Below, piece after piece: positions 4,297 through 36,897 of a stretch of DNA of 64,000 nucleotides. Positions within the stretch are counted from its first letter, which is position 1, and each line of letters starts with the position of its first letter. Origin of the DNA: a virus (taxonomy: Duplodnaviria > Caudoviricetes); the IMG/VR virus record IMGVR_UViG_3300032116_000009, one strand, 5' to 3'. The notes beneath the pieces are model-generated. The model was not told the DNA's origin, ran no database searches, and was given only the letters and a program-made list of their open reading frames with translations. A program made the position numbers and the translations under genes.

Positions 4297-4304
4297 TATT
4301 TATA
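4297..4304 (-). promoter_or_regulatory. Late promoter, perfect TATAAATA, upstream of gene 22
   Basis: Minus strand TTATAAATAAATAC directly after the gp21 stop; exact T4 gp55 (sigma) consensus. Confidence 0.85.
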
Positions 4305-10435: not shown

Positions 10436-10666
10436 TTACCAGTCAGGATATTCCCATTTATCAAAAACTCTATTAGTCATTCTACTGGAGACTATTCTTT
10501 GAATAGTGCAATTTTTACACTCATATGAATATGCTGATGCTATGCCACCTCTACCTTTTCTCGTAAGATAAAAACCATCAATAAGATCTTTTACTTTTCC
10601 ACACTTTCTACATTTTCTCTCAGTAAGAAATAAATGTTCTAATTCAAATTGATCATCAAAATCCAT
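10436..10666 (-). CDS. Hypothetical zinc-finger protein (CxxC...CxxC), translationally coupled to gp17
   Basis: RKCRKCGKVKDLIDGFY...YECKNC; ATG overlaps the gp17 stop (TAATG). Confidence 0.75.
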   Translation of the reverse strand: MDFDDQFELEHLFLTERKCRKCGKVKDLIDGFYLTRKGRGGIASAYSYECKNCTIQRIVSSRMTNRVFDKWEYPDW

Positions 10667-12315
10667 TATCTATAATCCCACATATATTGCATGTCTCCAT
10701 ATTCATCAACATGCCAACGATCGCCATCTTCATCAACAAAGCTTTCTCCACTATCTAACCCATCAGAAATGAATCCGAAAGGGGCCATATCTTGTTCAAT
10801 TTGATTTTTTTGTTCTTCATAAATCCTTTTACGAACATCATTGTCCGTCATTTCTTTGAAGTATGGTTGCATGATTAACCATGCAAAAATAACTAGACAC
10901 ATTGCAAGATCATCATTACAACCATCTTCAGCCTCAAAAGAATTAGCTTTCTGAATGAAAGTTGTGAGTTCACTGATCACTTCATAGTCTTTAATGACTA
11001 ATTTATCTTCTTCTATTAAAGTCTTAAGATTCATGCATCCAATCTTTTTGACATTTTTGGACATCTTCACGCCCATTTGAGATTTCTTACCAGAAAACCC
11101 TTGACCCACTAATTGACCAGCACGACCCCTCATCGTACACATAAGGACGTTATCATATTCCAAATCCATATGAAGAATCTGTCCAACTTGTTCACCAACG
11201 TCATTAACTTCAACTAAAACATATGCTTTATTGTAAGCGACTGCAAGATCTTTGATAATACTCGGAAATAACATTGGTTTAATCTGGTTATTTCTGTATT
11301 TTGCTACAAGTCTATATGGAAAACTTGTTGTATCACAAATTGTAAATGCTGAATAATCTTTCTCTACGCCCCTAGCAACATCAACCGTTAAAACATAATT
11401 ATGATCCTTTTGAGGTTCTTCATAAATGTCAAGGCCTGCATTTCTTTTTATGGGATCATCGTAAACTAAAGATCTGAGTTTTGCTGCAGATATGAGAGTA
11501 TCGACAGATCCTAAAAATTCGCACTCAAACTCAACTTTAAATTGTTGTTCTGACGTGTTTGCAATAGTTTGTGCTTTCCACTTATCGTCTCTTCCTGGAA
11601 CTTCGGACCAATGAACATCTGTGGGAACGTATTCATTTTTACCGCGTTCGGCATCATGCCACATACGGTAAAAATGATTCATACCTTTTGGGGTAGAAAC
11701 AATTAGGACTTTTGTGCTTTGTCCAGACGATATAGTAGGATAAACAGAGGCAAAGAATTCATCAGCAATGTGATTCGGGATGAAAGCGAATTCGTCCAAA
11801 AAGATGATATTATACGATCCGCCTCGGACAGCAGATGCAGAAGTAGATGCGGCGATAATTTTTGAGCCATTCTCCAGTTCTAGAGATCGTTTGTTCCATG
11901 ATACGATACCTTGTTGCATCCATTTTGGCAGTTTTTCATATGCAAATTGTAATCTACTAAGTAGATCTTGTGCTGTGGATGCCTTGTTGGCTAGAATAGC
12001 TATGTTAACATTATCATTAAACACTGCATAATGTAACAAATATGAAACACAAGTTGTAGATTTACCTGTCTGACGAGGCATTCTACAAATGTTAAATCTA
12101 TTTTCGTGAAAGTTTGTAATTAACTTCTCTTGGAATGGATACATCCTAAAAGGTATTTCACCATAGTCTAGTGAAACAATCTTGATATAATTTTTAGCAA
12201 AATACACAGGATCGTTCTTGCACTTTACAAACTCAAGAACTTGTTCCTGTGTAAATTCTACGGCTACATTAGCCTTTTTAAGGTTGGGATTACCAAGATA
12301 TACCTGATCACTCAT
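10666..12315 (-). CDS. 17: Terminase large subunit gp17
   Basis: YLGNPNLK, Walker A PRQTGKST, ILANKASTA, Walker B IIFLDEFAF, VSTPKGMNHFY, nuclease VDVARG and DDLAMCL. No intein-sized insertion. Confidence 0.99.
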   Translation of the reverse strand: MSDQVYLGNPNLKKANVAVEFTQEQVLEFVKCKNDPVYFAKNYIKIVSLDYGEIPFRMYPFQEKLITNFHENRFNICRMPRQTGKSTTCVSYLLHYAVFNDNVNIAILANKASTAQDLLSRLQFAYEKLPKWMQQGIVSWNKRSLELENGSKIIAASTSASAVRGGSYNIIFLDEFAFIPNHIADEFFASVYPTISSGQSTKVLIVSTPKGMNHFYRMWHDAERGKNEYVPTDVHWSEVPGRDDKWKAQTIANTSEQQFKVEFECEFLGSVDTLISAAKLRSLVYDDPIKRNAGLDIYEEPQKDHNYVLTVDVARGVEKDYSAFTICDTTSFPYRLVAKYRNNQIKPMLFPSIIKDLAVAYNKAYVLVEVNDVGEQVGQILHMDLEYDNVLMCTMRGRAGQLVGQGFSGKKSQMGVKMSKNVKKIGCMNLKTLIEEDKLVIKDYEVISELTTFIQKANSFEAEDGCNDDLAMCLVIFAWLIMQPYFKEMTDNDVRKRIYEEQKNQIEQDMAPFGFISDGLDSGESFVDEDGDRWHVDEYGDMQYMWDYR

Positions 12316-12324
12316 AAGACAAAA

Positions 12325-12501
12325 TTACAATTTCGCTAAACTTGCTACGACTTCTTGTTGTTTGAGATATAGTTTAAAATAAGCTTTGGCAAATTCTATT
12401 GCTTCATCTCTATCTAACTTATCTATAACCCTCGATTGTTGTTCATAAATTAACATCTTATTAATATCTTCAAGTACTATTTCAGAGGGATTTACGTTCA
12501 T
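12325..12501 (-). CDS. Unannotated 58-aa helical protein, possibly NblA-like
   Basis: Below the track cutoff; translated by hand: MNVNPSEIVLEDINKMLIYEQQSRVIDKLDRDEAIEFAKAYFKLYLKQQEVVASLAKL*. It fills the gap exactly (1 nt after the upstream stop, 9 nt before gp17) and has an AAGGT SD-like sequence upstream. The ORF itself is well supported; the NblA call is tentative. Confidence 0.7.
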   Translation of the reverse strand: MNVNPSEIVLEDINKMLIYEQQSRVIDKLDRDEAIEFAKAYFKLYLKQQEVVASLAKL

Positions 12502-12502
12502 T

Positions 12503-14428
12503 TCAATTACCTTGAATAACTACAATTGGTTTTGTTGGGTCGGTAGGACTTGGATACCACTGCATTATAACTGCGCCTGGATAAAACTTTTCAATTTCCT
12601 TTTTCACTTCATCTTTTGATGGCCTCTTCATACTTGAGAAGAAAAGTTGAAGATTTGTCATTGGTCTACCTCTCCATGAAAAAAGTATAGTATAAACATT
12701 ACCACTAGATTGTATCCGTTGATAATCTTCGTTTGTCAATTGTCCTGGTTGAATAACAGAGTCTGCAAGAGGAAGAGAGGGGCCACTTAGTTTTCTAAGT
12801 GCGGCTTCTTTCTCTCCTTTGTTAGTAGTTCCAGTTGCAAGATTGCGAATTTTTGCTTGTCTTTGTGCATGTCTGTGTCCAGAACCGATTTCAAAACTCA
12901 CATTTTCATTTGCTGGGTGAACTTTTGCAATACTATATGGTTTTTCTGGAGCTAATGAAGAAGGTAGTGAGAACATTTTCCAATAACCTTCGCCGTATTT
13001 GCATTCGGAAGATGTTTCATTTTTTTGGCACTTTGGGCAATATCTTACTCCATTCATTTCTTCTGGAATAAATTCTTCTTTTTTGGTTTTATTGCCCCAG
13101 TTTGCAGCACCAACTTTACGACACTTAACTAACGCACCAGATGCATATGCAGAAGGCCAAACCTTATAACGAGATTTTACCTTTGAATAACATGCGTCCT
13201 TTTCTTCACCTAATTTTGCAGCCCTTCTTTTTGCTTTACTTCCTTTTCCTCTATCTCTGTTTTTACCTAAAGTGTCTGCCCAATAATCTTTATTCTTTCT
13301 ATTCATTTCACCACCAACAGATCTTTCTTCTGGAGGGGCACTTCTTCCACCACGACTTCTCATAGAATCAAATCTTTTATCCAATTCCTCAGTGGCAACC
13401 ATCTTAGCCTTACCCTTTCTATCTGGGTTTGGATCTTCCTGGTTCTTACGACGGAATGCTCTCTCCTCTTCTTTATCGGAGAGTTCTGCTTTCATTTTGC
13501 TGGAACCACACTTTGGTTTTGTGGTTTGTCCTGGTTGTTTTGCACAGGGTTTCCCTGCGTATTTACCACCCAGTTGAACCCAACCAGGGGTGCCATCAGA
13601 AGCGCGACTCTTAGTAAACCAGTCACGCAAAGAACTATCACCACTCTTGTTGGCTTCATCAATGGAATTCTCCTTCACACAATTAGGAACTATCTTCTTT
13701 CCTTTCTTTTTCATTCCGAGTTGTTTGTAACCATCCCAACATTTTTCGTTCACAGGCTCAGTAAAACTTTTGAATTTATAATCAGACCCTTTAACAATAT
13801 CAATAATAGTTGCAAAAAGATTTCCGTCTGCATCTAGAATCTCTAGATGTTCATTCATTCTTTTTTTACGACCTTGGCAGTGAGCTTTCTGGGAAAATCC
13901 TTTTGGATTATCACAATCAATTGACTTTTTATATTTTTCCGACCAATCTTCCTTTACCTTCTCCATTTTTCTAAGTTTGGAGTAGTAATTTGGAATTTCG
14001 TCTAAATGTTGCAATGCAATATCCATTGCTTGATCATTATCTGTAGTATGTTCCTTTTCAACTTTCATCCCCATCTCAAGTTGTTTTTCGATAACTGATG
14101 GAGATACTTTATGCTTTTTTGCGATTTCTTCTATGGATTTGTGTCCTTTGAACCCTTCTTTAACATCAGATTTTCTTTCTGTATCATCTTCTCCATGAGT
14201 AAGATGATCAGCTACTGTATCAAGATACTCTGCAGCTTTAGTGATTTTGGATTGTACCCACGCTTCTAGATCTCCTTCACCTTTGAGTTTGGTCATCAAT
14301 CTTGTAATTGCTGCCTGTGCAGTCTTAAGTTCTCCACGAGCCATTGAGAACTCAAAGTCTTCTCCAAGAGGTGCAATTGTTTGGAGGTCCGAGAGAATAG
14401 ACCACTCTTTAAAGGTAAGTTTTTCCAT
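12503..14428 (-). CDS. Modular basic protein, putative capsid-internal polyprotein
   Basis: Start moved from the track TTG (14461) to the ATG at 14428 (MEKLTFKEW), 1 nt after the upstream stop. A string of short K/R- and Cys-containing modules separated by hydrophobic-x-Glu linkers. From memory, EHTTD...HLDEIPNYYSKL resembles DUF5661 and KDACYSKVKSRYKVWPSAYASGALVKCRK resembles DUF5872; not verified. Confidence 0.8.
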   Translation of the reverse strand: MEKLTFKEWSILSDLQTIAPLGEDFEFSMARGELKTAQAAITRLMTKLKGEGDLEAWVQSKITKAAEYLDTVADHLTHGEDDTERKSDVKEGFKGHKSIEEIAKKHKVSPSVIEKQLEMGMKVEKEHTTDNDQAMDIALQHLDEIPNYYSKLRKMEKVKEDWSEKYKKSIDCDNPKGFSQKAHCQGRKKRMNEHLEILDADGNLFATIIDIVKGSDYKFKSFTEPVNEKCWDGYKQLGMKKKGKKIVPNCVKENSIDEANKSGDSSLRDWFTKSRASDGTPGWVQLGGKYAGKPCAKQPGQTTKPKCGSSKMKAELSDKEEERAFRRKNQEDPNPDRKGKAKMVATEELDKRFDSMRSRGGRSAPPEERSVGGEMNRKNKDYWADTLGKNRDRGKGSKAKRRAAKLGEEKDACYSKVKSRYKVWPSAYASGALVKCRKVGAANWGNKTKKEEFIPEEMNGVRYCPKCQKNETSSECKYGEGYWKMFSLPSSLAPEKPYSIAKVHPANENVSFEIGSGHRHAQRQAKIRNLATGTTNKGEKEAALRKLSGPSLPLADSVIQPGQLTNEDYQRIQSSGNVYTILFSWRGRPMTNLQLFFSSMKRPSKDEVKKEIEKFYPGAVIMQWYPSPTDPTKPIVVIQGN

Positions 14429-14429
14429 A

Positions 14430-14852
14430 TTACTTTTGATTAGATAAGTTTTTCTTTCCAAGTGAAATCACTTGATCTTTTGTCATACCAGTTGCTTTCA
14501 TCTTTGCTGCACCACCACCAGCAGCAAAATCATCCATTGGTTTTTTGACTGGTGTAGACTGCTGTTGAGAAGGTCTGTTTATTTTGTTAGAAAAATCTTG
14601 TTGTGCCTTTGCTGCTTTTGCCTTTTGTCCCGCATAAAGAACATCACTCACACTACTTCCTTTTTTTAGTGCTGCTTGTCCACCACCTGCTTTAAGGGCT
14701 GCATATCCACCTCTGTCAGAAAATTGCTTTGATCCAATCTGATTTGAAGCATAGGCATTTCTTTGAGCACTTGTAGTGAAACGACTATTTGGATTCATTG
14801 CCATTTCACTAATAGAATAAGCCTCGGCACAAAAATTTCGGAATGTCTTCAT
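14430..14852 (-). CDS. Putative internal head protein with T4-like capsid-targeting sequence
   Basis: Begins MKTFRNFCAE|A (T4 IPII/IPIII leader is MKTYQEFIAE); basic, Gly/Ala-rich; CTAAATA box at 14877-14883. Confidence 0.75.
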   Translation of the reverse strand: MKTFRNFCAEAYSISEMAMNPNSRFTTSAQRNAYASNQIGSKQFSDRGGYAALKAGGGQAALKKGSSVSDVLYAGQKAKAAKAQQDFSNKINRPSQQQSTPVKKPMDDFAAGGGAAKMKATGMTKDQVISLGKKNLSNQK

Positions 14853-14875: not shown

Positions 14876-15307
14876 TTATTTAGATGTATCTTGATTCATG
14901 GAACTCTTCAAGAACTTTTGAAGTTCTGCAGTAGAACCAAAGAATACTGCATTGTTAGTAACACTTGTCGGTGTTGCTCCTTTTTCTTCCTTATTAATAT
15001 CTTTCATTTTCTTTTGAAGATCTAAAAGTTTATCTGTAACATCTCCAACATTCTTGATTAATTGTCCAGCAACTTCATATGCTCTAGGTGAATCTGATTC
15101 TTGGGCTAGTTCTAGAATTCCATTAATCGCTTCTTGACCCTTCTCGATAATTGAGTAAAGTTGACCCCTAGAATATTCATAATCCTTTTGTAATTGATCA
15201 AGATTTTCTGTAGGTTTTTGAATATCAGTTACTTCTGTTTTAACTATTTCGGATTTAATCGTTGTTGGTTCTATATCTAAAGCTTTGTCAATATCATCAA
15301 AGTTCAT
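14876..15307 (-). CDS. 16: Terminase small subunit gp16
   Basis: DYEYSRGQLYSIIEKGQEAINGILELAQESDSPRAYEVAGQLIKNV...NNAVFFGSTAELQK. Confidence 0.95.
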   Translation of the reverse strand: MNFDDIDKALDIEPTTIKSEIVKTEVTDIQKPTENLDQLQKDYEYSRGQLYSIIEKGQEAINGILELAQESDSPRAYEVAGQLIKNVGDVTDKLLDLQKKMKDINKEEKGATPTSVTNNAVFFGSTAELQKFLKSSMNQDTSK

Positions 15308-36889: not shown

Positions 36890-36897
36890 TATTTATA
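36890..36897 (-). promoter_or_regulatory. Late promoter, perfect TATAAATA
   Basis: Exact T4 late consensus overlapping the stop of the 225-aa ORF, about 45 nt upstream of the 335-aa gene. Confidence 0.85.

Follow-up and report, generated by a model that had tools for sequence, protein, structure and literature searches.

A divergent NblA-like protein encoded beside the terminase gene of a T4-like cyanomyovirus

We identify a 58-amino-acid open reading frame in the packaging region of a T4-like cyanomyovirus as a real gene under purifying selection, whose product, judged from its sequence, is a new member of an already published clade of NblA-like cyanomyovirus proteins. The link to NblA runs through intermediate sequences and through the protein's fold, without a direct profile match, and sequence comparison and structure modelling together support the NblA reading at the level of family homology and of fold. 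In cyanobacteria, NblA is a helix-hairpin dimer that binds both phycobiliproteins and the chaperone ClpC, and so hands the light-harvesting antenna to the Clp protease. The explanation that best accounts for the observations, and that we consider probable, is that the viral protein is a divergent NblA of a T4-like, Kyanoviridae-type cyanomyovirus, acting as a dimeric adaptor for antenna degradation and made late in infection. By analogy with characterized NblA proteins, it would function as a dimer, bind phycobiliproteins and ClpC and bleach the host, and it would do so late.

A small gene ahead of gp17

The window, by which we mean the whole stretch of 64,000 nucleotides that was analyzed, covers the structural and packaging region of a T4-like cyanomyovirus, and its long ORFs all lie on the minus strand. 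The first-pass annotation of this DNA had pointed to a hidden 58-aa ORF at 12325-12501, just ahead of gp17 in the packaging operon. Reading the sequence confirms both statements: the coding sequence occupies 12325..12501 on the minus strand, with its ATG at 12501-12499 and its TAA at 12327-12325, and its translation equals the 58 residues quoted in that annotation letter for letter. Upstream of it lies a gene for a protein assigned by Pfam and PHROGs to DUF5661 and phrog_727 (12503..14461, minus strand; 652 aa, or 641 aa from a later start), and downstream lies gp17, encoding the terminase large subunit with its Terminase_6N and Terminase_6C domains (10666..12315, minus strand). The ORF exactly fills the 187-nt gap between these two genes. 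The TGA stop codon of the upstream gene (12505-12503, minus strand) ends 1 nt from the ATG, giving TGAAATG, and the start of gp17 follows 9 nt past the TAA. Because the upstream stop lies so close to the ATG, the sequence suggests that the small gene is translationally coupled to the DUF5661 gene; a Shine-Dalgarno-like tetramer, AAGG (12510..12513, minus strand), is found 8 nt 5' of the ATG, within the final codons of that gene. The whole region forms a chain of genes, gp13-gp14-gp15-gp16-orf140-DUF5661-58-aa ORF-gp17-orf76, separated by gaps of at most 26 nt. Within this chain gp16, the terminase small subunit gene (DNA_Packaging, phrog_445; 14876..15307, minus strand), opens the gp16-to-gp17 interval that holds the insert, and a 76-aa ORF with two C-x-x-C pairs (orf76; 10436-10666, minus strand) follows gp17 so closely that its start codon overlaps the gp17 stop codon by one base (TAATG).

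An ORF this short, lying under the 60-aa track of an AT-rich genome with many spurious ORFs of similar size, could in principle have arisen by chance and be no gene; the chance of this is vanishingly small. Close relatives of the protein form 68 protein clusters at E<=0.01, an alignment of 31 of them (alignment A1) contains 12 invariant columns, and a scan of IMG/VR finds relatives encoded on at least 516 viral contigs, so that the frame is conserved free of stop codons across hundreds of contigs. The median dN/dS is 0.23 (pairwise Nei-Gojobori, 53 full-length copies) and falls to 0.01-0.11 against the closest copies, for which dS is 0.3-1.6. The identical 58-aa protein is indexed in 93 blocks of a metagenome assembly collection, and in all six of the places listed from these 93 blocks it is encoded immediately 5' of gp17; gene order is the same in contigs with the identical protein wherever their upstream sequence reaches far enough. 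In one contig (L017) the small gene is unchanged despite replacement of the DUF5661 gene. Residues 4-55 also match phrog_27081 (E 1.8e-11), a family with no function assigned in PHROGs. The clusters of relatives, the identical copies, the viral contigs and the dN/dS values, together with the exact fit to the 187-nt gap, refute a chance ORF.

The neighboring genes show variation of their own. The 652-aa form of the DUF5661 ORF begins with a TTG codon and overlaps orf140 by 32 nt (14430-14461), a doubtful start since the later one, giving 641 aa, is called on the identical contigs L016 and L020. In contig L017 (1137-2999, corresponding to 12503-14852 of the window), orf140 and the DUF5661 gene are replaced by four ORFs of 35, 109, 305 and 157 aa; since the flanking gp16, NblA-like gene and gp17 are unaltered, we take the gp16-to-gp17 interval to be a variable cassette site. 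RNA-library contigs from two runs join position 13205 to 13389 within the DUF5661 gene, skipping 183 nt (61 codons, in frame), which looks like a strain variant without one module of a modular DUF5661 protein rather than splicing. On the other side, orf76 is kept beside gp17 in most gp17-containing viral loci at 64-80% identity; its counterpart in phage S-SCSM2R is labelled 'PacI protein', and some relatives list 'endonuclease VII' under the aligned stretch.

Signals that might direct transcription of the small gene are sparse. The gp13-gp17 region contains no exact copy of the T4 late promoter, TATAAATA, nor is there a sigma-70-like site just upstream of the 58-aa ORF. Looser late-promoter-like matches, CTAAATA and ATAAATA, occur at gene junctions in the gp13-gp17 region, with CTAAATA heptamers at the stop codons of gp14 and gp16, the gp16 copy overlapping the stop. 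With no intergenic space, no sigma-70-like site and CTAAATA at the gp14 and gp16 stops only, we infer from gene order that the nblA-like gene is most likely co-transcribed with the late packaging genes, coupled to its upstream neighbor, and made late. Short contigs from three metatranscriptome runs of a single study, which cannot show strand or level, cover parts of the stretch and leave ORF bases 12405-12486 uncovered. One RNA-library contig (12236-12404) spans the junction between the nblA-like gene and gp17, and because DNA carry-over is possible it counts as weak evidence of co-transcription. Across the full 64 kb, the TATAAATA octamer occurs twice (4297-4304 and 36890-36897, minus strand), compared with 10.9 copies expected from shuffled sequence; both copies are on the coding strand shortly 5' of gene starts, and the motif seems to be avoided elsewhere.

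Homology to NblA through intermediates and fold

Direct family profiles fail to recognize the protein. The comparison with the Pfam NblA HMM that the first-pass annotation had proposed drew a blank: PF04485, whose gathering score is 25 bits, gives nothing at E<=10 against the 58-aa protein, and neither does the NCBIfam NblA model NF045916. PF04485 gives sub-threshold matches in four of the 31 close relatives (best E 0.033) and no match to the family consensus sequences. Searches of PDB sequences by phmmer and hmmsearch, using the protein and the profiles A1 and A2, return no NblA chain at E<=10, and Foldseek returns nothing below E 1 from the PDB or BFVD, with no NblA chain among its weak PDB rows. 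Aligning A1 and A2 by hhalign with an 11-sequence alignment of PaV-LD-type NblAs, a template too narrow for a fair test (Neff 1.3), gives E values of 0.0083 and 0.074 at probabilities below 5%, the best row having E 0.0083 and probability 4.8%. Word-based searches for canonical NblA returned 2 and 10 close homologues. The failure of Pfam is expected, since the NblAs of marine cyanophages and picocyanobacteria typically score below the PF04485 cut-off and needed dedicated profiles to be found (Nadel et al.).

Intermediate sequences bridge this gap. Searching 1.84 billion representative proteins with the A1 HMM under full HMMER gives 169 matches at E<=0.001, and these include P0193 (E 3.5e-5) and P0207 (E 1.6e-4); scored in turn against PF04485, the two proteins reach 34.9 and 25.1 bits and so exceed its gathering score of 25. 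BLASTP aligns the 58-aa protein with P0193 over 45 ungapped residues at 40% identity (E 2e-11). A wider family profile, built without P0193 and P0207, scores the two at 38 and 44 bits and detects PaV-LD-type NblAs with per-sequence E values of 1.5e-4 to 4e-3.

The wider family also contains unusual architectures. In the natural protein P0070, two NblA-like domains are fused in tandem into a covalent 'dimer'; an extra domain of ~70 aa is common to P0103 and P0135 but sits at opposite ends, following the NblA-like domain in one and preceding it in the other; and P0072 carries an 85-aa N-terminal extension to its NblA-like domain. Distant members with 'KKGWLP'-type C-termini (L102/L103:5001-5180 and L105:3001-3186) are encoded by genes that stand alone on the opposite strand inside a replication module with DNA polymerase A, primase and a sigma factor. 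A cyanobacterial origin for these last matches was ruled out, as their contigs (~42 kb) belong to a different type of phage.

The predicted fold leads to the same family. AlphaFold2 models the protein as a helix-loop-helix (mean pLDDT 88.4), with helix 1 at residues 10-27 and helix 2 at residues 31-57, in keeping with the two helices first predicted from the sequence. When the model is compared with 48,161 PDB chains by VIA-align, three NblA structures take ranks 1, 3 and 5: 1OJH (Z 6.4), 2Q8V (Z 5.9, rmsd 2.2 over 49 residues) and 3CS5 (Z 5.3, rmsd 0.9 over 46 residues). Unrelated helices interleave the NblA rows, and Z scores of 5-6 are common for short helical hairpins; the modest Z reflects how short a 58-residue hairpin is. 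An ESM-Atlas cluster that is 100% PF04485 matches the model at TM 0.72, and a search with language-model features, which we treat as a lead only, gives 'putative NblA' (0.79) as its first named cluster.

Sequence and structure agree on a single register. An ungapped superposition places model residues 9-58 on residues 5-54 of 1OJH, and the HMM alignment through P0193 gives the same register. I13 and L17 fall on L9 and F13 of the Nostoc LSLEQQF motif, and LDRDEAIEF falls on Nostoc MSHDQAKDF, where P0193 has MDRDQLIEF. Toward the C-terminus, L55 falls on Nostoc L51 and K57 on K53, the two positions at which the Nostoc protein binds phycobiliproteins (PMC12695635). The first-pass annotation had proposed a helix-2 match to Nostoc MSHDQAKDF...ELLK; this stretch is indeed present in 1OJH, and the superposition aligns LDRDEAIEF with it exactly so. 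It had also described the LSLEQQF motif as only weakly matched (LEDINKML), an assessment that stands: at that place the protein reads E11-D12-I13-N14-K15-M16-L17, and the two hydrophobic positions I13 and L17 alone are kept. Of 76 wider relatives, 68 have F at position 17 and 63 have L, I or M at position 55. The lysine at position 57 is retained in only 19, and the functional NblA of S-TIP37 carries T at the position equivalent to K53 (PMC12695635).

A homodimer is also predicted, with an ipSAE of 0.55 against 0.01 for the best control; runs share at least 92% of contacts, and the pLDDT of the partner chain is at least 78. This ipSAE mark is reached by 20 of 30 solved homodimers and by one of 23 single chains, and the modelled dimer may owe its pass partly to the existence of solved NblA dimers. 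The suggestion, made at the outset, that this ORF encodes an NblA-like cyanophage protein is thus supported by homology through intermediates, by fold, by the register of the alignments and by the predicted dimer.

Position in the genome and proposed role

Homologues of the protein are already known from isolated phages. A tblastn search finds them in 17 phage records at 36-52% identity, and every one of these phages infects a Synechococcus-type host. Such hosts carry phycobilisomes. Two homologues, S-SCSM2R ORF118 and S-SCSM1 ORF237, are annotated as NblA. ORF237 and seven cyanomyovirus homologues were assigned to NblA by HHpred, and these genes cluster with S-TIM5 and picocyanobacterial NblAs (PMC9602691). 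Nadel et al., so far as they are cited in PMC9602691, place S-TIM5 among cyanophage isolates with an unannotated nblA. The closest parallel is S-SCSM2R ORF118 (PQ898602.1; PMC12801897), which is 48% identical over 57 of the 58 residues (tblastn E 1e-9), has an NblA label that rests on remote homology only, and sits in the same slot, in the order gp15, gp16, a large hypothetical protein, nblA, gp17, a small Cys-rich ORF and sheath. It differs in having an extra 91-aa ORF between nblA and gp17 and in coming from a marine isolate, whereas the nearest copies of the window gene come from lake-labelled samples. The wider clade, including S-TIM5 gp189, S-SCSM1 ORF237, Bellamy gp115 and S-SRM01 gp198 (phrog_27081), is 36-52% identical over the full length and has been assigned to NblA by HHpred or relaxed profile searches (PMC9602691; 10.1101/494369). 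Its genes occupy other positions: Bellamy and S-SRM01 have theirs before gp13, S-SCSM1 has its copy close to a helicase gene, and that of S-TIM5 is surrounded by tRNAs.

A survey of the best 80 IMG/VR loci shows that these positions are recurrent. In 23 of the 80 the gene lies directly 5' of gp17, nearly always after a DUF5661 homologue, and in 50 of the 80 it lies 0.4-3.6 kb 5' of the neck gene gp13, the arrangement found in Bellamy and S-SRM01; of the remaining loci, one (L045) ends after the DUF5661 gene and six are too short to place. In all 80 the gene is oriented as the structural genes are. Outside this set, S-TIM5 carries the gene amid tRNAs and small ORFs, S-SCSM1 has it next to a helicase gene, and in DSL-LC03 it runs on the opposite strand. 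Because it occurs before gp17 or gp13 and elsewhere in such varied settings, we conclude that this auxiliary gene is mobile, prefers two insertion sites within the late module and keeps no fixed association with the terminase. The first-pass annotation had called a position before gp17 unusual for nblA; within this clade it is instead typical, as the 23 of 80 loci and the annotated nblA of S-SCSM2R in the same place indicate.

Compared with cyanobacterial NblA (PF04485; Nostoc PCC 7120 1OJH, T. vulcanus 2Q8V and S. elongatus 3CS5), the window protein has a similar length (~60 aa), the same helix-loop-helix (rmsd 0.9-3.1 over 46-50 residues) and a predicted homodimer, and it shares L and K at the L51 and K53 places and a D-x-A-x-x-F pattern in the turn and at the start of helix 2. 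It differs in being only ~10-16% identical and under the Pfam gathering score, in having LEDINKML in place of LSLEQQF, and in belonging to a family with its own strongly conserved helix-2 motif, K-L-Y-L-K-Q-Q-E. Viral NblAs tested experimentally are those of PaV-LD, Ma-LMM01/MaMV-DC, one metagenomic podovirus-like gene and the T7-like phage S-TIP37, and the NblA of T7-like cyanophages speeds infection and reduces light harvesting by ocean picocyanobacteria (PMC12695635). Like PaV-LD ORF022L and the genes of Ma-LMM01/MaMV-DC and S-TIP37, the window gene is a small cyanophage auxiliary gene, and by analogy its product may likewise serve as an adaptor to Clp proteolysis of the antenna. Unlike the window protein, NblA of the PaV-LD type is recognized by Pfam (48 bits) and closely resembles host NblA, and unlike the tested viral genes, the window gene sits inside a late packaging operon.

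These comparisons suggest a model for how the protein would act. We propose that the 58-residue helix-loop-helix pairs into a homodimer, as in cyanobacterial NblA, and that this dimer, by analogy with the proteins of cyanobacteria, PaV-LD and S-TIP37, would connect phycobiliproteins with the chaperone ClpC. Phycobiliproteins would be bound by the C-terminal end of helix 2, where L55 and K57 lie, and ClpC by helix 1. The host antenna, once delivered to the Clp protease, would be degraded, which would supply amino acids and reduce light harvesting while infection proceeds. Among viral NblAs, that of the T7-like S-TIP37 is the best studied, and its gene is expressed with the DNA-replication genes, before the morphogenesis genes, so that a position in a late operon fits known biology less well; if expression is late, the timing of the window gene differs from that of S-TIP37 nblA.

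The genomic setting invites other readings of the same family resemblance. One is that the protein, although truly homologous to NblA, now serves another purpose, still recruiting a Clp-type chaperone or another partner to targets other than the phycobilisome, which could be other host proteins or head and packaging components encoded by neighboring genes. We regard this as unlikely, although several observations are in its favor: members of the clade are almost always encoded amid virion and packaging genes (ahead of gp17 at 23 of the 80 loci and of gp13 at 50), the gene is tightly coupled to the DUF5661 gene, and the helix-1 motif and K57 are poorly conserved. The S-TIP37 NblA is also reported to direct cleavage of non-phycobilisome proteins, and nblA to occur in phages of Prochlorococcus, which has no phycobilisomes (PMC12695635). 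Against it, the gene has no constant neighbor, as its settings in S-TIM5, S-SCSM1 and DSL-LC03 show, a hydrophobic residue is kept at the L51-equivalent position in 63 of 76 relatives, and the known isolates with the gene all infect phycobilisome-bearing Synechococcus. A related reading, to which we give still less weight, concerns timing: the clade may represent a late-timed adaptor, produced solely alongside virion and packaging proteins and so unlike the replication-phase NblA of T7-like phages, that either supplies amino acids freed by Clp to capsid synthesis as infection ends or acts on non-phycobilisome targets, which could include the products of neighboring genes, and that is perhaps carried in the virion.

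More radically, the likeness to NblA could be convergent, with the protein a packaging or head-assembly accessory factor that resembles NblA only as one generic helical hairpin resembles another. Its gene does adjoin the terminase gene or the neck genes and points the same way as the late genes, and the lack of a direct Pfam match and the empty Foldseek searches of the PDB and BFVD would fit such a protein. We nonetheless find this account very improbable, given significant full-length similarity to proteins that pass the Pfam NblA cut-off, a structural ranking of 48,161 PDB chains in which the three NblA representatives all come within the first five, and the one register common to sequence and structure alignments. 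Moreover, most T4-like phages lack the gene, which is confined to cyanophages (17 records, Synechococcus hosts), a distribution that fits an auxiliary gene and not a core assembly factor. A divergent NblA that acts on the host antenna thus remains the reading that we favor.

Habitat and significance

By DNA, the nearest isolates are Synechococcus myoviruses, and gp17 is ~78% identical to that of S-SCSM2R. An 89%-identical copy of the small protein is encoded on a contig in an 'Acetobacteraceae' MAG whose isolate label (ME2015...) resembles a lake time series, and the label 'lake water metagenome' belongs to runs that share a sample or study with those in which the stretch occurs and that themselves contain almost none of its sequence. 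The phage is therefore probably from freshwater lakes, and its host is likely a freshwater or lake picocyanobacterium.

For the window itself, our analysis is a gain in annotation and reveals no new kind of system. More broadly, the NblA branch of T4-like cyanomyoviruses is separate from and very divergent from the T7-like type, and it is overlooked by standard Pfam and 60-aa cut-offs. The branch is widespread, with at least 516 viral contigs, and the exact window protein recurs in 93 blocks, many of them apparently from lakes. Including this branch would raise estimates of how many cyanophages attack the host antenna, and its constant placement in late structural operons raises the question of when the antenna is degraded in myovirus infections.

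A pattern-limited scan of MAG contigs, which says little about whether the gene came from a host, turned up phage contigs assigned to unrelated MAGs but no homologue in a host. Among these, L003-L007 are cyanophage contigs carrying the gene that are binned as Acetobacteraceae, Pirellulaceae, Crocinitomicaceae and Methanobacteriota, placements that look like binning errors. Also in the 'Acetobacteraceae' bin is a phage contig resembling PaV-LD that encodes a canonical NblA (48 bits; 96% identity to PaV-LD).
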